Positions 6,690 through 62,963 of a stretch of 64,000 bases of DNA are shown here, in pieces (positions within the stretch are counted from its first letter, which is position 1; the number at the start of each line of letters is the position of its first letter). The stretch comes from an uncultured delta proteobacterium (GTDB taxonomy: Bacteria > Myxococcota > Myxococcia > Myxococcales > Myxococcaceae). The notes beneath the pieces are model-generated. The model worked only from the letters and a program-made list of their open reading frames with translations. It was not told where the DNA came from and did no database searches. The DNA lies in NCBI GenBank assembly GCA_963771175.1, contig CAVYSY010000038.1:192001-256000 (forward strand). Reading direction: 5' to 3'. A program made the position numbers and the translations under genes.

Positions 6690-7719
6690 ATGCCCGGACC
6701 CCATGACCTCTTCGCCCGCTACACCTTCGGTCACCCCGAGCGGGCCGCGGCCGAGTTGCGCGCCGCCCTGCCCCCGCATGTCGTCTCGCAGGTGGACTGG
6801 GCGTCCCTGCGGCGAGAGTCCGGCTCCGTGGTGGACCCGGAGCTGCGGGAGACCGAGAGCGACCTGCTCTTCACGGCTCGACTGCGCACGGGCCGCCCGC
6901 TGCTGCTGTACGTGCTGCTCGAACACCAGTCCTCGGTGGACAGGTGGATGGCGCTGCGCATGCTGCGCTACGTGGTGCGCCAGGTGGAGCACTGGCGCCA
7001 GCAGCACCCGGAGAGCACAGCGCTCCCGGTCATCATTCCCCTCGTCATGTACCACGGGCAGGAGGGCACCTGGTCGGCGCCCCGCCGGGTGGAGGAGCTC
7101 TTCGACCTGCCGGGCGAAGGCGAGCAGCGCGGAACGTTGGCGGGCACTGGTGCCGCGCTTCGAGTACCTGCTGGATGACCTGACAGCCAAGCGAGCCGAG
7201 GCGCTGCTGGCGCGCCCCGGCCCACCTCTGGCCCGGCTGGCGTGGCTCGCCCTACGCTACGGGCGCACCGAGGAGTTGGCTCAACGACTGCCGGACTGGA
7301 CGGCGCTCTTCGCCCAGGTGCATGACACTCCCGAGGGCTCCGAACATCTGGTGGTGGTCATCCGCTATCTCATCTGGATCGGGGACGAGGCAGCCCACGA
7401 AGCAACGAGGCAGGTGCTAGATTCAGTCTTGGATACCCAACGAACGGAGGCGCTGATGCGGAGCTATGGCGAGGAACTCATCGAGCGGGGACGCCGGCGG
7501 GGACTGGAGCAGGGACTGGAGCAGGGGCTGGAGCAGGGGCGGCTCCGAGGACGTGCCGAGGCGGTGCTTCGGATTCTCGCCGCACGGGGCGTGCAGGTCG
7601 GGGAGGAGGCGCAACAGCGCATCCTGACGTGCACGGACATGGCCACCCTCGACCGTTGGTTCGATAAGTCCCTGAACGCCACCACCCTCTCCGACGTGCT
7701 GGATGACCTGGTGAGCTGA
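6690..7719 (+). CDS. Rpn family recombination-promoting nuclease / putative transposase (one apparent frameshift near 7130)
   Basis: MPGPHDLF..., ESDLLF, YVLLEHQS, ALRMLRY, VIIPLVMYHG in frame 1; continues in another frame (WRALVPRFEYLLDDL) to a GLEQGLEQG tail. Confidence 0.9.
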
Positions 7720-8910: not shown

Positions 8911-10006
8911 GCACGAACCAGCGCGGCAGCCAGTCCGCCCCCTTCGACTTCGTCAACTGCGCCTGACCACTCCCGTCCGCCCGCATCAGGAACAGCTCCA
9001 CGTCTCCCGTGCGGTCCGAGGGGAACACCAGGTACTTCCCATCCGGGCTCCACGCCGGCTGGTCATCCGTGCTCTTCCCATCCGTCAGCGCCACCGGCTC
9101 GCCACCCGCCACGCTCGCCACCCAGATGCGCGCGTTGCCTTCCTTGCCCCGCGCCACGAAGGCCAGCTTCTGCCCGTCCGGGCTCCACGCCGGCTCCCGC
9201 TCCTCGCCTGTCGTCGCGCTCCCCGACACCGCTCGCAGCCCCGTCCCGTCCGGCTTCACCAGGAACACCCGCGTGCGCCCCTCCCGGTCACTCAGGAAGG
9301 AGAGCCACTTCCCGTCCGGGCTCCAGCGCGGCGCCATGTCCTCCTTGTGGAAGGCCGTCAGCCGGCGCACGTCCGACCCATCCGCCTTCATCACGTAGAT
9401 TTCCGGATCTCCCTCGCGGCTGGACACGAACGCCACCTGCGTCCCGTCCGGAGACACGCTCGGCTCGAAGTTGCCCTCGCGCGCCGTGGCCAGCCTCACC
9501 ACCTCCGCGCCCGCGCGCGGCTCCTGCCGCACCACGTCACTGAAGCCCTGTGCGTCCGACTCGGCCACGAACCAGCCGCCGTCCGGGGCCCAGCTCGGGT
9601 TGCGCGCGCGCCCCCGGGGCTCCGACAGCATCACCACCTCGCCGCCACCCACCGGCGCCAGCCGGAGCTGCTCCACGTGCAGCCCGCCCACCTCGGCCGC
9701 CGCCACCACCATCACCGCGGCACCATCCGGAGATGGCGCCATGGGGTACTCATCCTCGGGACCTCGCGTGAGCTGCGACTCCTCGCCCGTCGGCCGCACC
9801 AGCCAGACATCCTTCTGGGGCGCCCGCTCCGAGACGAAGGCGATGATTCCTGGCATCCCTCGCCGCTCATCCTCGGTGAGGGGCCCGGAGCCAGATGCAC
9901 CTCGGCCACACATGCCCGCCTTGCATCCGGCCCCGAGCAGGGCGAGTACGGCCAACCGCCGCGCTCCACCCCGCCACGCCTGTCTCGCGAAGTCCCGAGT
10001 CATCAC
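8903..10006 (-). CDS. TolB-like PD40/WD40 beta-propeller lipoprotein
   Basis: Repeated P.WSPDG..L.F.S.R.G blades; lipobox GAG-C. Confidence 0.85.
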   Translation of the reverse strand: MMTRDFARQAWRGGARRLAVLALLGAGCKAGMCGRGASGSGPLTEDERRGMPGIIAFVSERAPQKDVWLVRPTGEESQLTRGPEDEYPMAPSPDGAAVMVVAAAEVGGLHVEQLRLAPVGGGEVVMLSEPRGRARNPSWAPDGGWFVAESDAQGFSDVVRQEPRAGAEVVRLATAREGNFEPSVSPDGTQVAFVSSREGDPEIYVMKADGSDVRRLTAFHKEDMAPRWSPDGKWLSFLSDREGRTRVFLVKPDGTGLRAVSGSATTGEEREPAWSPDGQKLAFVARGKEGNARIWVASVAGGEPVALTDGKSTDDQPAWSPDGKYLVFPSDRTGDVELFLMRADGSGQAQLTKSKGADWLPRWFVPT

Positions 10007-10015
10007 GTCACATCA

Positions 10016-11624
<1,609 letters not shown>

Positions 11625-55660: not shown

Positions 55661-56341
55661 TCAGTCCACGTCACGGCGCAGGCGCGCGGGGTCCACGAGG
55701 GTGATCTGCCCCCCCTCGACCGTCAGCAGCCCCTCGCGCCGGTAGAAGCTCAGCCACTTGTTGGCGCTCTCCCGGGTGACGCCGCACAGGTTGGCCAGCT
55801 CCGCCTGGGTCAGCTTGGGGATGATGACCCCGCCCTCGGCCCCGGGCTGGCCCTGCGTCCGGGCCAGATCCAACAGCACCCGCGCCAGGCGCGCGCGCGC
55901 ATCCAGGAAGGCCGCGTCATGCACGAGCTGGGTGACCCGCCGTACCATGCGGCTGAGCACCGCCAGCAGCGCCATGGCCACCTGGGGGCGCTCGACCAGG
56001 AAGCGCCGGAAGTCCTCCTGGTTGAGCTTCAGCAGCTCCGTCTCGTCGCGCGACACCGCGTCCGCCGAGCGCGGCTCCCCGTCCAGCAGCGCCAGCTCTC
56101 CGAAGGCATCGCCCCGGCCCAGCAGCGCCAGGATGACCTCCCGGCCCTCCGCGGAGCTCAGGCGAATGGCCACCTCGCCCTTGCGGACGATGAAGAGGGC
56201 CGTGCCCACGTCTCCCTCGTGGAAGATGACCTCGCCCTTGCTGTAACGCCGCAGCTGGAGCAACCCCGACAGATGCTCCTGGTCCTCGCTCGCGAGGTGC
56301 TCGAACATCGGGATTTTACGCAGCAGCGGCGCGTACGACAT
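55661..56341 (-). CDS. Crp/Fnr-family transcriptional regulator
   Basis: FGELALL..PRSA cNMP pocket; LTQAELA.L.G.TRES.NK HTH. Confidence 0.95.
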   Translation of the reverse strand: MSYAPLLRKIPMFEHLASEDQEHLSGLLQLRRYSKGEVIFHEGDVGTALFIVRKGEVAIRLSSAEGREVILALLGRGDAFGELALLDGEPRSADAVSRDETELLKLNQEDFRRFLVERPQVAMALLAVLSRMVRRVTQLVHDAAFLDARARLARVLLDLARTQGQPGAEGGVIIPKLTQAELANLCGVTRESANKWLSFYRREGLLTVEGGQITLVDPARLRRDVD

Positions 56342-56596
56342 GCGGGCACCTCGGCGAGCCGGAACGAGATAAACAGGCGAGCACCGGAAGTCTCCACTTC
56401 CTCGGCCCGGGCGCCAACCTAATCGGATCCTCCCCCGACTCCAATGATCCGTCTCCTACACTCCCCATCCCACCCCACCCGGACCCGCCGTTGCATTGAC
56501 CCCTCCCCCCGATTGCGAAATGATGCGTCCAGGGTGTAACGCCGAGTCCGGCACGCGTGGATTCCCTGGCCGTGTTCCTCGGAGCCCATCGAGCGC

Positions 56597-57139
56597 ATGA
56601 CCGCAGAGCCTCGCCCATCACCCCCGGTGCCGACCCTCCAGTGCCCCCGCTGCAAGGCGACGCTGCCGCCCGTGTCCCTGGGCAGTCAGATCGTCCGCTG
56701 CGGGAGCTGTGGGGCCGCCATGGAGGTGAGGGTGCGCACGGCGCAGCAGGCGGCGAGCGAGGGGCCCACCACGGCCTACATCCCCCCTCCCGCCCCGCTC
56801 GAGGGGATGGCACGGCCTCGCCGCCGGCCCATGGTGGAGGTCTCCGGCCCGAGGCGCGCCGCGGTCGAGCCCGTCTCCACCCTCACGGTGGACATCCCCG
56901 TGGAGCCCGAGCCCGCTCTGGCCTCCACCCCGCCGCCCTCGCCCGCCAGCATCGACGTGCCCTGGTTCGCCGAGGACATCGAGCGACTGCCGGAGGCCGA
57001 CGTGGACCTCGGGCAGCTCGCGCTGGAGTCCTTCGAGTCCCTGCCCCCACTGGCGCTGCGGCCCGACCTGTCGTCGGCCTCCCGCGCGGCCGGAGCGGCT
57101 CCGTCGCGCCCCCCTGGTTCCCAGTTGCCGGGTAAATGA
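56597..57139 (+). CDS. Zinc-ribbon protein with Pro/acidic disordered tail
   Basis: CPRC-x14-CGSC; GGAG upstream. Confidence 0.6.
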   Translation: MTAEPRPSPPVPTLQCPRCKATLPPVSLGSQIVRCGSCGAAMEVRVRTAQQAASEGPTTAYIPPPAPLEGMARPRRRPMVEVSGPRRAAVEPVSTLTVDIPVEPEPALASTPPPSPASIDVPWFAEDIERLPEADVDLGQLALESFESLPPLALRPDLSSASRAAGAAPSRPPGSQLPGK

Positions 57140-57272
57140 CAGAATCCACCAGGCTGGTGTGTTGACGGCCAGGCCCCAACCCCCTGAAGCCCGCCACGAG
57201 AGGGTGGGGTATCATGGCGGGGACGCGCGGTTGGAGGACGGCCGGCATCGAGGAGGGAGTGGAGGAAGCGTG

Positions 57273-58418
57273 ATGAGGAACGCAACCAGCATGGAGTCAG
57301 CGTCGGGCTCCTCGGCGAACCTCCAGGAGCTCCGCCAGGGTTGTATCGAGCTGGGGCGCCAGGTCGAGGGCCTCGCCGAGCTGGTGCTGCCCCTGCTGCG
57401 ACAGGCGACCCAGGAGCTCGGCCGGCTGGAGGCGCAGCGCGAGGAGCTCCGCAAGACGGGAGCCCGCGAGGCGCAGCAGACCGTCCTGCCCAAGCTGAAC
57501 GAGCGCATCGAGGAGCAGGCCCAGGGCATCAAGCGCCTGGAGCGGACCAGCCGGGGCCTCAAGGAGCTCCTCACGGGGCTCGGGGGCCTGGGCGAGCAGA
57601 TGCAGAGCGGGCTCGCGCGGCGCGACGAGGCCTGGCGCGAGCAGGAGGCCATCGTCCGCGAGGAGAAGCGGATGTGGCTCCAGGAGCTCACCGCCCTGCG
57701 TGAGCAGGTGCGGAGCCAGGGCACCCCCGCGAGCCCCTCGCCCGTCCAGCACGAGGAGCTGCCGCGGCTGCGCGCCGAGAAGGAGCGGCTCACCCAGCGC
57801 GTGGCCGAGCTCGAGAAGAGCCTCGCCGCCCGGGAGCAGACGCTCACGGCCAAGGAGCAGACCATCGAGGACCTGCGCAGGATGATCGTCCTGCTCACGG
57901 GGGACGCGGCCTCCTCGGCCGCGCCCAAGGCCGAGACGAAGCCGCTGCCGCCGCCGCCCGTCAACGTCGTCCCGCTCACCACCAAGGCCCCACCGAAGCC
58001 CAAGCCGCCCGACACGATGTTCGGCAACAGCACGATGCAGCTCGCCACCAGCATGCTGGAGACGCTCGGCGCGGACGTCCCTCCGCCTCCGCTGCCCGAG
58101 CCGCCCGTGGCGCTCGGGCCCAAGGTGCCGAGCATGGAGATCATGCTCGGCCCGCTCGACGAGCTGGAGCCACCGCCGCCGTCGCTGCCTCCCCCCGTAC
58201 CCGTCGCGCCGCCCGTCCCCATCATCCCCGCCATGCCCCCCGTGCCCTCCATGCCCCGCGCCAGCGCGAGGACCGCGGCACCGGCCAAGACACCCGCGCC
58301 CCTCCCCGGCCTCGCGCCCAAGGTGGTGGGCCGTCCCGGCACGCTCGTCGTCAGCGAGGACATGTTCAACGAGATGCTCGTCGAGGAGAGCACCCGGGGC
58401 GGCTCCGGTAGGAAATGA
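57273..58418 (+). CDS. Coiled-coil protein with Pro-rich C-terminus
   Basis: About 210 aa of E/Q/R/L heptads then PPP-rich region; GGAGG RBS; stop overlaps kinase ATG (ATGA). Confidence 0.75.
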   Translation: MRNATSMESASGSSANLQELRQGCIELGRQVEGLAELVLPLLRQATQELGRLEAQREELRKTGAREAQQTVLPKLNERIEEQAQGIKRLERTSRGLKELLTGLGGLGEQMQSGLARRDEAWREQEAIVREEKRMWLQELTALREQVRSQGTPASPSPVQHEELPRLRAEKERLTQRVAELEKSLAAREQTLTAKEQTIEDLRRMIVLLTGDAASSAAPKAETKPLPPPPVNVVPLTTKAPPKPKPPDTMFGNSTMQLATSMLETLGADVPPPPLPEPPVALGPKVPSMEIMLGPLDELEPPPPSLPPPVPVAPPVPIIPAMPPVPSMPRASARTAAPAKTPAPLPGLAPKVVGRPGTLVVSEDMFNEMLVEESTRGGSGRK

Positions 58419-60379
58419 GCACGACGGACGGCGACAGCTCCCTGCCGGCCCGCTTCGGCCGCTACGTGCTGCTCAGTCACCTGGGCCGCGGCGGCATGGC
58501 GGACATCTACCGGGCCCTGGCGCTCGGCGCCGGCGGCTTCGCCAAGCAGGTGGTCGTCAAGCGCGTGCTGCCGGAGGCCACCCGGCAGGAGTCGACGGTG
58601 AAGATGTTCATCGAGGAGGCGCGGCTCTCGGGCCAGCTCCAGCACATGAACATCGCGCAAATCTTCGACTTCGGAGAGCACCGGGGCGAGTACTTCATCG
58701 CCATGGAGTTCATCCATGGGCGCGACCTGCATGACCTGATGCGGCGCGTGGCGGCGAGGGGGCAGGGCATCCCCGTGCACATCGCCTGCTACATCACCCA
58801 GGAGGTGCTCAAGGGGCTGGACTACGCGCACCGGGCGCGCTCGGCGGCGGGCGAGCCGCTCCACCTCGTGCACCGCGACGTCAACCCCACCAACATCATC
58901 CTCTCCTTCGAGGGAGAGGTGAAGCTGCTGGACTTCGGCGTGGCGCTCGTGGGCGAGGGCAACAACGACATCGCCATCAACGTGCGGGGCAAGCCGGGCT
59001 ACATCCCTCCCGAGCAGCTCAACCGGAAGAAGCCGGACGCGCGCGGCGACATCTTCGCCCTGGGCATCACCCTCTACGAGCTGCTCGCCCGGCGGCCCGC
59101 CTTCAAGCCCGGCCCGGTGATGGACGTGCTCAAGCAGACGCTGACGCTCAAGGTCCGCCCGCTGCGGCTCCAGGACGCGTCCCCCTTCCTGCCCGAGCCC
59201 CTGTGCGCCATCGTCAACCGCTGCATGCTGGCCAACCCGGAGGAGCGCTTCCAGTCGGCCGCCGACGTGCTCGACGCCCTGGACGAGTTCCTCCTGTCCG
59301 CCGGCCTGCGCGTGTCCCAGCGCGACCTCGCCGCGCTGATGGCCACCTGCTACGAGCCGGAGGTGCGCACCCCGCCGGTGCTGCCCCCCATCTCCGAGGC
59401 GCTGCTGGCGCAGGAGGCGCCCCCAGCCCCGGCCCCGGTCACTCTCCCCATCTACGCGGTGCGCGAGCCGGATGGGCGCTCGCTCGCGAAGCTGGGCGAG
59501 GAGGACGTGCAGCTCCTCTTCGCCTCGGGGAAGCTGTCGCCGGAGGCGCAGGTGTCCCAGGCCGGCGGACCCTTCCTGCCGCCCTCGGCCTTCCCCCGCC
59601 TCAGCTCCGTGGCGGCCGCGGCCCGCGAGCGCCTCGAGGCCCGGCGCGCCAAGGCGCCCCCGCCGCGCTATGCCGGGGACCTCGGACAGGTGCCCGCCCT
59701 GCGGGTCATCTCGCGGCTGCTGCTGGCCAAGGCCACCGGCCGGCTCCACTTCGAGAACAACCGCGCCCACAAGGAGCTCTTCCTCAAGGCGGGTCAAATC
59801 ATCGCGGTGCGCTCCAACGTGGCCGCGGACCGCTTCGGCCCCTTCCTGCTGAGCACCGGCAAGCTGGCGCCGGAGCTGTGGTTCCGCGCGGTGGAGCGCA
59901 CCCGCCCCTTCTCCGGCCGGCTGCTGGATGCGCTGCTGGCCTCGCGGGCCCTCTCCCCGGCGGAGCTGGCCGAGTGGTCCCGCGACCACCGGCGCACGGT
60001 GGCGCTCGGCCTGCTCGGCTGGACGCGGGGCCGTTATGCCTTCTTCGAGCGCGAGCAGCCCGTCATCGACAGCACCGAGGAGAAGCTCGGCGGCCTGGCG
60101 CTGCTCAACGAGGGCCTGCGCGCGCACTACCCGCTGGAGCGGCTGGTGCGTGAGCAGGAGCCGCTGCGCAACAAGCCCCTCTACCGCAACCTGGACGCCC
60201 CCGTGGCCGCCAGCGACCTGGCACTCTCGGCGTCCGAGCTGCGCGCCGCCTCTCTCCTCGGCAAGCCGGGAAATACCCTGTCCGGCGCCCTTGCGGAACT
60301 CAAGCGGCCGGAGGATGAAGTAGCGTTGCGCCGGGTGGCGCTGCTCTTCACGGAGATAGGGCTCCTGGCGGCGGCCTGA
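58415..60379 (+). CDS. Hanks-type Ser/Thr kinase with GYF_2-like and DUF4388-like domains
   Basis: GRGGMA, VVVK, HRDVNPTN, DFG, GK.GY.PPE, DIFALG; C-terminal TG.L.F...K.LFL..G.I, W..G.YAF. Confidence 0.92.
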   Translation: MSTTDGDSSLPARFGRYVLLSHLGRGGMADIYRALALGAGGFAKQVVVKRVLPEATRQESTVKMFIEEARLSGQLQHMNIAQIFDFGEHRGEYFIAMEFIHGRDLHDLMRRVAARGQGIPVHIACYITQEVLKGLDYAHRARSAAGEPLHLVHRDVNPTNIILSFEGEVKLLDFGVALVGEGNNDIAINVRGKPGYIPPEQLNRKKPDARGDIFALGITLYELLARRPAFKPGPVMDVLKQTLTLKVRPLRLQDASPFLPEPLCAIVNRCMLANPEERFQSAADVLDALDEFLLSAGLRVSQRDLAALMATCYEPEVRTPPVLPPISEALLAQEAPPAPAPVTLPIYAVREPDGRSLAKLGEEDVQLLFASGKLSPEAQVSQAGGPFLPPSAFPRLSSVAAAARERLEARRAKAPPPRYAGDLGQVPALRVISRLLLAKATGRLHFENNRAHKELFLKAGQIIAVRSNVAADRFGPFLLSTGKLAPELWFRAVERTRPFSGRLLDALLASRALSPAELAEWSRDHRRTVALGLLGWTRGRYAFFEREQPVIDSTEEKLGGLALLNEGLRAHYPLERLVREQEPLRNKPLYRNLDAPVAASDLALSASELRAASLLGKPGNTLSGALAELKRPEDEVALRRVALLFTEIGLLAAA

Positions 60380-60405
60380 GCGGCACGCCAGGAGGGACGG
60401 GGTGT

Positions 60406-61938
60406 ATGGGAATCGTTCTCGGAATCGACCTGGGCACGACCAATAGCTGCATGGCCGTGGTCGACCCGGCCACCGGACAGGCCCGCGTGTTGCCCAACCG
60501 CGAGGGCGAGCGCACCACTCCGTCCGTCGTCGGCTTCGACCCCTCGGGCAAGGTGACGGTGGGCAGCCCCGCGCGCCGCCAGGGCGCCCTCCACCCCCGC
60601 AGCACCCTCTTCGGGGTGAAGCGCCTCATCGGCCGGCGCTTCTCGGACCCGGCGGTGCGCAAGCTGATGAGGCTGCTGCCCTACGAGGTGGTGGCGGACC
60701 CCGCCGGCAACGCCGCGGTGCGCGTCCACGGCCAGGTGCTGAGCCCGGCCGACGTGGCCAGCCACGTGCTGCGCTACCTCAAGGAGAGCGCCGAGGCCCG
60801 CCTGGGAGAGCCGGTGGACGGCGCCGTCATCACCGTGCCCGCCTACTTCGACGAGGTGCAGCGCCAGGAGACGAAGAACGCCGGCCTGCGCGCCGGGCTG
60901 ACGGTGCACCGGCTCCTCAACGAGCCCACCGCCGCCATGCTCGCCTGCCGCTTCGACGAGTCGCAGCCGGAGAACATCGCCGTCTTCGACCTGGGCGGCG
61001 GCACCTTCGACATCTCCCTGCTGCACGTGGAGGAGGAAGTGGTGCAGGTGCTGGCCACCTGCGGTGACAACTTCCTGGGCGGCGACAACTTCGACGAGCT
61101 CGTGGTGGATGCGCTGCACCGCATCTTCCTCAAGCAGACCGGGGTGGACCTGGCCGGAGACCCCGCGGCCCTCTGGCGCTTGAAGGAAGCGGCGGAGAAC
61201 ACCAAGCGCGCCCTCTCCGAGGTGGAGCTGACGGCGGTGGACCTGCCCTTCGTCGCCACCGGCCCCGAGGGCCCGCTGCACCTGTCCATCCCCTCCTTCC
61301 CGCGCACGCTCTTCGAGAACCTCGTGGCCCGGGAGCTGGAGCGGCTGCGCACCCCCTGCGAGCAGGCCCTCCAGGACGCGGACCTCCAGCACCGGGACAT
61401 CCACCGCGTCCTCCTCGTGGGCGGCATGTCGCGCATGCCCGCGGTGCGCGCGCGCGCCGAGCAGTACCTCGGCCGGCCCGGGGAGCGCTCCGTCAACCCC
61501 GACGAGGCCGTGGCCCTCGGCGCCGCCCTCGAGGCGGACATCATCGCCGGCACCTCGCCGGAGCTGCCGCGGGTGCTGCTGCTGGACGTGCTCTCGCGCA
61601 GCCTGGGCGTGCGCACCGAGGGCGGCCGCTTCAGCGTCCTCATCCCCCGCAACACCACCATCCCCGCGCGCGAGACGAAGGTGTTCGCCACCACCTTCGA
61701 CCACCAGACCCACGTGGACATCGAGGTGTACCAGGGCGAGGCTTCCACCGTGGACGGCAACCGCTACCTCGGGGAGCTGCGACTGGCGGGGCTCCCCGCC
61801 GCGCCGGGTGGCAGGGTGCGCGTGGAGGTGGACTTCACCATCGACGCGGATGGCATCCTCCAGGTCACCGCGCGCGAGCCCGCCACCGGGCGCAAGGCCG
61901 AGGCCCGGATGCACCCGCCCACCGCCAGCTCGCCCTGA
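60406..61938 (+). CDS. Hsp70/DnaK-family protein lacking the alpha-helical lid (510 aa)
   Basis: GIDLGTTNS, TVPAYF, NEPTAA, DLGGGTFD, VGGMSRMP, LLLDV linker, SBD-beta; ends right after SBD-beta. Confidence 0.95.
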   Translation: MGIVLGIDLGTTNSCMAVVDPATGQARVLPNREGERTTPSVVGFDPSGKVTVGSPARRQGALHPRSTLFGVKRLIGRRFSDPAVRKLMRLLPYEVVADPAGNAAVRVHGQVLSPADVASHVLRYLKESAEARLGEPVDGAVITVPAYFDEVQRQETKNAGLRAGLTVHRLLNEPTAAMLACRFDESQPENIAVFDLGGGTFDISLLHVEEEVVQVLATCGDNFLGGDNFDELVVDALHRIFLKQTGVDLAGDPAALWRLKEAAENTKRALSEVELTAVDLPFVATGPEGPLHLSIPSFPRTLFENLVARELERLRTPCEQALQDADLQHRDIHRVLLVGGMSRMPAVRARAEQYLGRPGERSVNPDEAVALGAALEADIIAGTSPELPRVLLLDVLSRSLGVRTEGGRFSVLIPRNTTIPARETKVFATTFDHQTHVDIEVYQGEASTVDGNRYLGELRLAGLPAAPGGRVRVEVDFTIDADGILQVTAREPATGRKAEARMHPPTASSP

Positions 61939-61950
61939 GAGGGAGACCCC

Positions 61951-62568
61951 ATGTCCCTGGACTCGCCCTTCCACGGCAAGAACCCCTTCGAGGTGCTCGG
62001 ACTCCAGGGCACCGAGGACGTGCCCGCCATCCGCAAGGCCTTCCTGCGCATCGCCGCGCAGTCCCACCCGGACCGGCTCCGGATGAAGTCCGAGGAGGAG
62101 AAGGCCCAGGCGCTGGAGACCTTCCTGCTCGCCAAGAAGGCCTTCGAGGTGCTCTCCCTGCCGGACAAGCGGCGCGAGTGGAGCGAGCGGCTGGTGATGC
62201 CGCCCCGCACGCCCCCCGCTCCGGTGCAGCCCCCTCCCGAGGCGAAGGCCCCGCCCCCCCCGCGCAGTGGCCCCCTGCCCGCCGCCGCCGCGCTCCAGCT
62301 CTACAAGCTGGGCATGCTGGCCATGGAGTCCTCGGACTACGCGAAGGCGCTCGACCTGTTCTCCAAGGCCGCGAAGCTGGCTCCCACGCCTCGCCACCAG
62401 GCCATGGAGCTGGTGGGCCGCGGGCACCAGTACCTCAGCACCCGCTTCCTCGACCGCGCGCGCGAGAGCTTCGAGCGCGCCCTCCAGCTCCAGCCGGACT
62501 GCCGCGAGGCCCGCGCGGGCCTCGACGTGCTCGACAAACAGGCGGGCCGATTGTTCAAGGGGCGCTAG
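61951..62568 (+). CDS. J-domain + TPR co-chaperone
   Basis: NPFEVLG..IRKAF..HPD..AFEVLS; C-terminal TPR helices (A...FERAL.L.P...EA..GL). Confidence 0.9.
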   Translation: MSLDSPFHGKNPFEVLGLQGTEDVPAIRKAFLRIAAQSHPDRLRMKSEEEKAQALETFLLAKKAFEVLSLPDKRREWSERLVMPPRTPPAPVQPPPEAKAPPPPRSGPLPAAAALQLYKLGMLAMESSDYAKALDLFSKAAKLAPTPRHQAMELVGRGHQYLSTRFLDRARESFERALQLQPDCREARAGLDVLDKQAGRLFKGR

Positions 62569-62963
62569 CGCCCCGCCCCCTCCTCGGGTGCGACTCCTTG
62601 AAGACCTCGGACAGCCGCGGCGGCACCTGACGCACCGCGTCACGCATGACGAGGGCGGCAGGTCACCCCTACCGGCCGGGTCACTTATGTGAACTCAAGG
62701 TGAAAATGGGGCCCCCAGTTGGAAAGGACCCTCAAATGTTGATAAACGGCCGCTCCGGCAGTGACCGCCGTTCGCCTGGCAACGTCCGTCGCGTCGCGAG
62801 CCAACCCCCTACTCTCCCCAGGGAGGCCCTCGTGAATGCAGACGAAGCAGAAGTGGGTCCCCCCAGGGAGCTGCAGTCCGCACACGACGGCTCCGCTTCG
62901 AATCCGCCGGTCCGCATCACCGCCAACGGGTTCCTGCTCACCCTCCAGGTCTTGCGAGGTTCC

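Follow-up and report, generated by a model that had tools for sequence, protein, structure and literature searches.

Why should a myxobacterium encode a protein kinase, an Hsp70 chaperone and a J-domain protein as consecutive genes, together with two small proteins that are confined to its own clade? Such an arrangement lies at positions 55661-62568 of a 64,000-nucleotide (nt) stretch of DNA from an uncultured, Archangium-type soil member of the Myxococcaceae (GCA_963771175.1, contig CAVYSY010000038.1, positions 192,001 to 256,000), hereafter called the window. An initial annotation had described five co-oriented genes (for a Zn-ribbon protein, a coiled-coil/Pro-rich protein, a kinase, an Hsp70 and a J-domain protein with TPR repeats, J-TPR) divergent from a Crp gene, and had read them as a self-contained, phospho-regulated chaperone or signalling module. 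Here we show that the Hsp70 belongs to a clade that lacks the C-terminal lid and is constantly paired with a J-like/TPR protein, that kinases have been associated with this pair repeatedly, and that the genes are conserved together. We give an even chance to the proposal that the operon is one functional unit coupling Ser/Thr-kinase signalling to a dedicated Hsp70 cycle; the chaperone looks like one that serves signalling rather than the folding of proteins in general.

The operon Hsp70 lacks the lid and is separate from DnaK

The Pfam HSP70 model (PF00012) matched the operon Hsp70 with 554.8 bits (cut-off 20.6), and the motifs DLGTTNS, DLGGGTFD, LVGGMSRMP and NPDEAVA are present. Since the match covers only profile positions 1-498 of 599, the alpha-helical lid is missing; the chain ends directly behind the beta substrate-binding domain, in a tail, RPPTA(S/T)SP, that is conserved among the 16 clade members compared. 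The protein scored below the cut-offs of the canonical DnaK equivalogs NF001413 and TIGR02350 (590.2 vs 648 and 573.4 vs 822.55; model positions 1-492 of 625), which agrees with the earlier proposal of a specialised paralog, and also below those of the HscA models NF003520 and TIGR01991 (463.3 vs 620 and 456.7 vs 708.55). No HscC-specific model was among the hits of the library scan. A separate DnaK of 612 aa, 49% identical to the lidless Hsp70, is encoded in the same genome.

The nearest relatives that are not orthologs were Hsp70s of ~515 residues with 50-52% identity in a large protein database. Phylogenetic trees were limited to the columns covered by the operon Hsp70, with 29 full-length DnaKs as comparison. 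IQ-TREE gave ultrafast bootstrap values of 98 for the Archangium-clade Hsp70s, 95 for the ~515-residue sister clade and 100 for both together, and the FastTree topology agrees. The operon Hsp70 belongs to a wider lidless clade separate from DnaK. A J-TPR or J-like/TPR gene adjoins the Hsp70 gene in both branches of this fully supported joint clade, downstream here and upstream in the sister clade, which defines a lidless Hsp70 clade paired with J-like/TPR proteins.

The J-TPR protein is composed of a J-domain (nt 61984-62181), a Pro-rich linker (62182-62286), a TPR region (62287-62550) and a C-terminal GRxxKGR motif. Pfam detected DnaJ (PF00226; 42.1 bits vs 27.8) and TPR_2 (43.2 vs 27), and the HPD motif pointed out in the initial annotation was found in 15/15 orthologs. 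Neither DnaJ_C nor DnaJ_CXXCXGXG matched at E<=0.1, which assigns the protein to the class C J-proteins. The protein has two to three TPR units and a conserved basic C-terminus, and it aligns over its full length with the J-TPR proteins of the sister clade (29% identity over 231 aa, E 7.6e-12). In seven relatives (L002, L007-L011 and L014; for example L009, ~10800-11100) a RPAFTPAHGVPVA-like unit that includes a TP site is present 1-5 times in tandem in the Pro-rich linker, and the linker in the window has none; thus the length of the linker differs greatly among species.

Signalling proteins have joined the Hsp70/J-TPR pair more than once

Eighty metagenome loci of the sister clade (L105-L184) were fetched around kin of one member, with 73-87% identity to that query. 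A co-oriented gene ends no more than 120 nt upstream of the sister Hsp70 gene in 57/57 loci whose upstream sequence exceeds 900 nt, and in 63/65 where it exceeds 300 nt. The products of these upstream genes align mutually and contain a J-like domain and TPR repeats with a Pro-rich linker in between, and Pfam at E<=1e-3 recognised DnaJ in 24 and TPR_2 in 26 of the 61 products. The Asp of HPD is replaced in 49/61 (HPA in 31, HPV in 14 and HPT in 4), so canonical ATPase stimulation is doubtful there, unlike in the Archangium clade (HPD in 15/15) and in the Myxococcota genome G199 (2/2). Some sister J genes appeared to be preceded by '+' open reading frames (ORFs) of ~800 aa; these were rejected as spurious frames opposite a homoserine-dehydrogenase gene.

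Of the 34 loci that extend at least 1 kb further, 21 have an ORF of one kinase cluster upstream of the sister J-like gene. All seven scanned members of this cluster are Pkinase proteins, three of them with PEGA, and a hydrophobic helix follows the kinase domain in 8/9 checked. These kinases are not orthologous to the operon kinase, indicating that the link between kinase and chaperone arose more than once. The operon kinase domain is closer to 47 kinases in which Ser/Thr kinase, GYF and PATAN domains are combined (STK-GYF-PATAN; median 218 bits) than to 19 kinases of the sister clade (median 100 bits), which indicates independent recruitment of two kinase lineages to the Hsp70/J-TPR pair. The genes downstream of the sister Hsp70 vary (FHA 4, GGDEF 3, acyl-CoA dehydrogenase 4 and LemA 3 of 29).

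Among 301 Myxococcota genomes, G199 alone carries members of the sister clade. It has two lidless Hsp70 genes, each preceded by one that encodes a REC-PilZ-J(HPD)-TPR protein, so that signalling input to the chaperone pair is a recurring theme. PAS and REC genes come after one of the two pairs, and an OmpA-family gene and a gene for a 2038-aa repeat protein after the other (L102 771-2540; L103 259-8304). With respect to taxonomy, the named record among 10 sister-clade clusters looked up is one Deltaproteobacteria metagenome-assembled genome (MAG); the commonest phyla of look-alike clusters in the Atlas, Myxococcota and Aminicenantota, provide a lead only.

The kinase carries a PATAN domain and a GYF-like fold

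The kinase domain (nt 58463-59254) matched Pkinase (PF00069) with 123.2 bits (cut-off 31.7). The catalytic motifs GxGxxA, VVVK, HRDVNPTN (HRD..N) and DFG were read, and the activation loop from DFG to PPE is devoid of Ser and Thr. In none of the five operon proteins does the mean Kyte-Doolittle hydropathy of any 19-residue segment reach 1.8, and thus no membrane helix is predicted. A DUF4388/PATAN domain (PF14332; residues 420-570, nt 59663-60124) was detected with 49.8 bits vs 25. In all three respects the kinase is as the initial annotation had described it.

An AlphaFold2 (AF2) model of residues 330-654, built on 74 relatives, had a mean confidence (pLDDT) of 94.1 and showed the fold order GYF, PATAN with an MshEN-like insert, and winged helix. 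Foldseek returned no match at E<=0.001 for the whole tail model, and the local domain matches alone are usable. The GYF-like fold (residues ~343-416, nt 59441-59662) matched the GYF domain of GltJ (7z3c) with a Foldseek probability of 0.99 and VIA Z 5.2. Smy2, GIGYF and CD2BP2-type GYF domains were matched as well (GltJ, Smy2 and GIGYF with probability 0.93-0.99 and Z 4.5-5.2). Relatives that align over this segment match Pfam GYF_2, namely P0147 with 29.2 bits vs 25.8 and, more weakly, P0142 and P0151. The GYF_2-like segment of the initial annotation resembles GYF in its predicted fold and through its relatives, but has no Pfam match of its own.

A search of 1.84 billion representatives gave 1423 relatives at E<=1e-3. 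Common types in this set are Pkinase-GYF_2-DUF4388 proteins of ~650 residues and free GYF_2-DUF4388 proteins of ~300 residues. The insert in the PATAN alpha-clip (nt 59834-59992) fits the c-di-GMP-binding N-domain of MshE (5htl_B) with a root-mean-square deviation of 1.3 over 52 columns. MshEN receptors are defined by a pair of 24-residue motifs in tandem, separated by 5 residues (relaxed motif, PMC5013675). The insert keeps the 24+5+24 spacing and 10/11 constrained positions of motif 1, but 7/11 of motif 2; the latter value is 6-7/11 in all 15 orthologs scored, in which both Gly residues and the Gln are lost, whereas most of the 74 relatives keep 10-11. By this motif comparison the insert does not qualify as an MshEN-type c-di-GMP receptor. 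The winged-helix-like end (nt 60149-60376) gave Z 5-6, the level of a common fold.

Six genes are conserved together in one myxobacterial clade

A pattern scan with one genome per species detected 14 full-length relatives of the kinase, 81-93% identical, in Archangium, Cystobacter and Vitiosangium, in addition to one contig-end fragment (L069, a piece of the operon) and 61 loci that share the kinase domain only. The closest public loci are from Archangium MAGs and strains. Thirteen of these 14 loci contain all six genes, Crp included, in an unchanged order, and the 14th (L003) is cut by the contig end inside the coiled-coil gene; the genes are thus co-conserved as a unit. The Crp gene adjoins the kinase operon in 13/13 loci that reach far enough. 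dN/dS by the Nei-Gojobori method (NG86) was below 1 in all six genes (medians 0.38-0.56; 8 pairs per gene). Near the distant kinase loci (L015-L076) Hsp70 is absent; a J match at L035 lies on the other strand and is unrelated.

When the C-terminal half of the kinase was searched in 121 genomes of the family, true orthologs (78-100% identity) were found in 8/8 genomes of the window's genus, its own included, and in 6/6 of a second genus. One genome of a third genus (G007) has a 60%-identical copy, and the other 106 genomes gave generic DUF4388 matches at best (E >= 8e-16). Hsp70 orthologs were present in 4/61 genomes searched, all from the same two genera; elsewhere the best match was a full-length DnaK of no more than 50% identity. 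The unpublished genome G049 is counted in these tallies (121 and 61) but contributes no ortholog; each n is one lower without it.

G007 presents a different form of the locus. On its contig C712 (4356-7191) the Crp gene (84.5% identical) directly faces the kinase gene (57%). The Zn-ribbon, coiled-coil, Hsp70 and J-TPR genes are not on this 7.4-kb contig, and no Hsp70 ortholog was found in the genome, which is 86% complete. The kinase and PATAN parts of the G007 kinase align throughout, and exactly the GYF segment is lacking; a short Pro-rich repeat occupies its position. G007 may represent a minimal form of the locus, and the joint absence would fit a tie between GYF and the extra genes.

Two of the related loci contain irregular genes. 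The Hsp70 match in L005, a Cystobacter fuscus assembly, is split and reads on into the J-TPR frame (~9112-11148), and the coiled-coil gene in L008 (Archangium violaceum Cb vi76) ends early (~6753-6888). Both are probably frameshifts or assembly errors.

The two small proteins are restricted to the clade

The Zn-ribbon and coiled-coil/Pro-rich proteins are orphans confined to the clade. The former has 43 relatives in 5.8 billion clusters, the named ones from Archangium, Melittangium and Cystobacter, and the latter 58, the named ones from Archangium, Cystobacter, Vitiosangium and Melittangium; all are annotated as hypothetical. In annotated genomes the two genes bear adjacent locus tags. The Zn-ribbon protein matched Pfam Zn_ribbon_LysW weakly (E 8.8e-5), and the ortholog alignment revealed two conserved motifs in its tail, ARPRRRPMVEV and PWFAEDIERLPEA.

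The AF2 model of the coiled-coil protein contains helices at residues 10-62, 65-149 and 159-209 with pLDDT >90. Its tail is predicted to be disordered (pLDDT <50) except for short helices at 252-266 and 362-373. The tail contains Pro runs, conserved motifs, and Ser/Thr residues that are kept in at least 12/13 orthologs, including one TP site.

Locus structure and regulation

The features of the locus, which has a G+C content of 70-74% around the kinase-Hsp70-J-TPR operon, are listed in Table 1. The divergent Crp gene, the five co-oriented genes and their tight junctions all lie where the initial annotation had placed them. The coiled-coil and kinase genes overlap by ATGA (AGGAAATGA, read directly), a gap of 26 nt with AGGAGG precedes the Hsp70 gene, and one of 12 nt with GAGGGAG precedes the J-TPR gene. 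The longest ORF of the coiled-coil gene begins at GTG 57159, but the true start was placed at ATG 57273 behind GGAGGA. The stretch upstream of this ATG is conserved but has 1-nt indels in the alignment of 14 loci, which indicates that it is non-coding, and the database record of the protein has 381 residues. A TonB-dependent receptor gene follows the operon, and genes for a LuxR-type regulator and ketopantoate reductase lie upstream.

Table 1. Positions of the features in the window
Feature	Position (nt)	Strand	Description
Crp/Fnr-family regulator	55661..56341	-	cNMP_binding + HTH_Crp_2 (Pfam); divergent from operon
Divergent intergenic region	56342..56596		promoter-like site TTGACC-17-AATGAT at 56496-56524; conserved blocks GGAAGTCTCC, GTGTAACGCC, CACGCGTGGAT
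Zn-ribbon protein gene	56597..57139	+	CxxC-15-CxxC (nt 56636-56731), disordered Pro-rich tail
Conserved non-coding spacer	57140..57272	+	invariant GGTATCAT; ribosome-binding site GGAGGA
Coiled-coil/Pro-rich protein gene, 381 aa	57273..58418	+	AF2 helices residues 10-209; tail residues 210-381 (nt 57900-58415)
Hanks-type Ser/Thr kinase gene, product cytoplasmic	58415..60379	+	kinase, GYF-like fold, PATAN/DUF4388, winged-helix-like end
Lidless Hsp70 gene, 510 aa	60406..61938	+	nucleotide-binding domain, linker VLLLDV, beta substrate-binding domain intact
J-TPR gene (class-C J-protein)	61951..62568	+	J-domain with HPD, Pro-rich linker, TPR repeats, C-terminal motif GRxxKGR

The divergently encoded regulator matched cNMP_binding (95.3 bits, E 2.2e-27) and HTH_Crp_2 (E 9.4e-17). 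It scored 105.1 vs 266 for the CRP equivalog NF008732 with the family domains present, and is thus a member of the Crp/Fnr family and not CRP itself. A promoter scan of the divergent region found one site vs 0.1 expected. The conserved blocks were taken from the alignment of 14 loci, and G007 keeps a similar TTGACG-N17 arrangement. A palindrome of the E. coli CRP type, TGTGA-N6-TCACA, was not found in 56342-56596 with up to three mismatches. Whether Crp controls the operon, as the initial annotation had suggested, cannot be told from the sequence.

Rfam gave no match at E<=1 on 56300-57400, and the RNAalifold covariation term of the conserved spacer was 0.05, which gives no support for a structured leader. 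Two RNA-library runs contained near-identical contigs of 151-233 nt inside each of the five genes, with DNA carry-over possible. A terminator scan found none after the operon. A perfect GC-rich palindrome, GGGGCGC TA GCGCCCC, noticed by eye, spans the stop codon of the J-TPR gene (62558-62573) without a T-run behind it, and may be a terminator-like hairpin.

Discussion

From the domain make-up, the co-conservation, the constant J-like/TPR partner and the repeated association with kinases we infer every physical contact, phosphorylation, direction of control and cellular output of the unit proposed here. The lidless Hsp70 and the HPD-bearing J-TPR protein would form an ATP-driven remodelling part, to which the cytoplasmic kinase would provide regulation and targeting. 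The most concrete predicted contact is the docking of the kinase GYF on the Pro-rich tail of the coiled-coil protein. GYF might dock also on the tail of the Zn-ribbon protein and on the J-TPR linker, and PATAN would bind a further cellular partner. The two disordered proteins of the clade would be scaffold or clients, and their assembly state would be set by phosphorylation together with binding and release of Hsp70. The putative translational coupling through the ATGA overlap and the short gaps with ribosome-binding sites supports the reading as a unit.

Several observations weigh against such a unit. Pfam GYF_2 (PF14237) matched neither the kinase nor three orthologous segments at E<=10. The 80 sister loci, as close kin of one query, are not independent, and 13 of the 34 that could be judged have no kinase upstream, so the chaperone pair does not strictly require one. 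The contrast offered by G007 is a single case. The 133-nt spacer at 57140-57272 and the matching stretch in L001-L014 may contain a second promoter or operator inside the operon. The RNA evidence consists of contigs, and since none of those found bridges an operon junction, co-transcription cannot be told. There is also no exchange factor in the operon: a GrpE gene is not on the contig of the window, and the three GrpE matches of the genome sit on contigs C3, C1 and C40. The lack of grpE had been noticed in the initial annotation, and because of it the term 'self-contained' is only partly apt; the co-conservation, the recurring kinase/Hsp70/J-TPR link, the specialised Hsp70 and the GYF precedent described below support that interpretation in part.

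The closest precedent for the proposed contact comes from gliding motility of Myxococcus xanthus. The GYF domain of GltJ (ZnR-linker-GYF) binds the Pro-rich sequence of AglZ, which consists of REC, the Pro-rich sequence and a long coiled coil (PMC11135422), and ~44% of bacterial GYF proteins also contain a Zn-ribbon (PMC11135422). The idea of the initial annotation that GYF meets a Pro-rich partner thus has a myxobacterial precedent, and it is the GltJ structure that the kinase segment matches. The same three blocks are present in the operon: a Zn-ribbon followed by a long linker, a GYF-like fold, and a coiled-coil protein with a Pro-rich tail. Unlike in GltJ/AglZ, however, the blocks are split over three proteins, GYF is part of the kinase, and there is neither a membrane part nor REC. 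By likeness to GltJ/AglZ, the two small proteins could serve as scaffold or clients.

On the chaperone side, CsdK1 and CsdK2 of M. xanthus are PilZ-DnaK chaperones with a specific small client, CdbS (PMC10313047). They resemble the operon Hsp70 as myxobacterial Hsp70 paralogs tied to a signalling input (of the c-di-GMP type through PilZ) and to a specific client, not the whole proteome. They differ in that PilZ is fused to Hsp70 and the partners are DnaJ1 and GrpS, whereas the operon has an unfused lidless Hsp70, a private J-TPR protein and a separate kinase. HscC of E. coli, which works with DjlB/DjlC, is a specialised Hsp70 with a shortened lid (PMC13580251), and StkA of M. xanthus has a signalling-type role in exopolysaccharide and social motility (PMC4319316). 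HscC and StkA/SglK can be set beside the operon Hsp70, by description only, as specialised bacterial Hsp70s; the operon protein, in contrast, is ~50% identical to DnaK and groups in the separate lidless clade. The texts examined report no kinase partner for HscC, StkA or SglK, and a survey of M. xanthus Hsp70s contains neither the word kinase nor TPR (PMC8265645). In the literature searched, with subscription-only papers and supplements outside its scope, we found no paper on the kinase/J-TPR/lidless-Hsp70 set, as the initial annotation had also stated.

As for the output, PATAN domains of cyanobacteria bind PilB/PilC (bioRxiv 10.1101/2021.06.11.447907), and DnaK1 of Synechococcus elongatus binds the PATAN regulator PixG and PilB (PMC13710413). 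The association of an Hsp70 paralog with a PATAN signalling protein is similar to that proposed here, where the kinase carries PATAN. DnaK1, on the other hand, is full length and has canonical DnaJ and GrpE partners, PixG belongs to the response regulators and not to the kinases, and pilus or polarity genes are not near the operon among the flanking genes examined. By analogy with these cyanobacterial contacts to the pilus motor, a pilus or polarity output would be a reasonable guess.

A bolder form of the coupling, which we put forward tentatively and regard as rather less probable than its opposite, is that lidless Hsp70 and J-like/TPR proteins would constitute a general ATP-driven output device of signalling that takes kinases, REC-PilZ and other sensors as inputs. 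The Archangium-clade version would then assemble or disassemble, under phospho-control, a coiled-coil polarity or motility scaffold made of split GltJ/AglZ-type parts (Zn-ribbon, GYF and Pro-rich coiled coil).

The main rival reverses the roles and makes the kinase the client: TPR would bind the kinase, the J-domain would recruit Hsp70, the kinase would be held in or freed from an inactive state, and the small proteins would be its substrates. The kinase, J-like/TPR and Hsp70 genes are the sole ones that recur together in both lidless clades, and the downstream neighbours vary, which makes the kinase the simplest common client. A eukaryotic precedent is P58IPK/DNAJC3, a TPR and J protein which works with Hsp70 on PKR and PERK and has nine TPRs followed by the J-domain. 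Like the operon J-TPR protein, it connects Hsp70 to a protein kinase, and DNAJC3 was the best match of the operon J-domain among solved natural J-domains (E 1.2e-5). P58IPK has been described as an endogenous PKR inhibitor (PMC8550428, PMC3143134). The similarity is limited to the J-domain, however, and the order in the operon protein, J and then two to three TPRs, is unlike that of P58IPK in both arrangement and repeat number. Moreover, the kinases of the two clades are non-orthologous and built differently (membrane-anchored PEGA vs soluble GYF-PATAN), so that a common TPR docking site is not evident, and the pair occurs in the 13 sister loci that lack a kinase. We consider this explanation unlikely.

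A second alternative is that the chaperones are spare paralogs for stress or general proteostasis, and that the kinase, the Crp and the two small genes adjoin them through descent without shared function. The number of Hsp70-like genes in myxobacteria reaches 15, and several of them overlap in function during sporulation and under oxidative stress (PMC8265645, PMC13580251); all the synteny observed is confined to a single small clade, in which gene order is conserved in any case. The tight coupling of the genes, the J-TPR partner that is constant in the sister clade (57/57 loci), and the independent joining of kinases and REC-PilZ modules to the pair argue against this explanation. So do an Hsp70 without the lid and a J-protein without the client-binding C-terminal domain of DnaJ, and we consider it quite improbable. 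An anti-phage or conflict system, in which the kinase would sense infection and the chaperone pair would be effector or regulator, is very improbable, since the scores of the kinase domain on the PADLOC models PD-T4-6 (200 bits) and mad6 (185 bits) span the generic kinase domain only, Hsp70 and J-TPR match 0 PADLOC families, the flanking genes are for housekeeping or transport, and the fixed chromosomal site beside Crp in every clade genome examined is unlike variable defence islands.

If the coupling of kinase signalling to the Hsp70 cycle is real, it would mean that bacteria use Hsp70 cycles as regulated signal-transduction switches, as eukaryotes do, and it would assign a function to the widespread STK-GYF-PATAN kinases. 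The general output device, if true, would have its counterpart in the Hsp70/J-protein disassembly machines of eukaryotes. The locus provides a concrete case, with the candidate clients encoded by neighbouring genes and in myxobacteria that can be cultivated.

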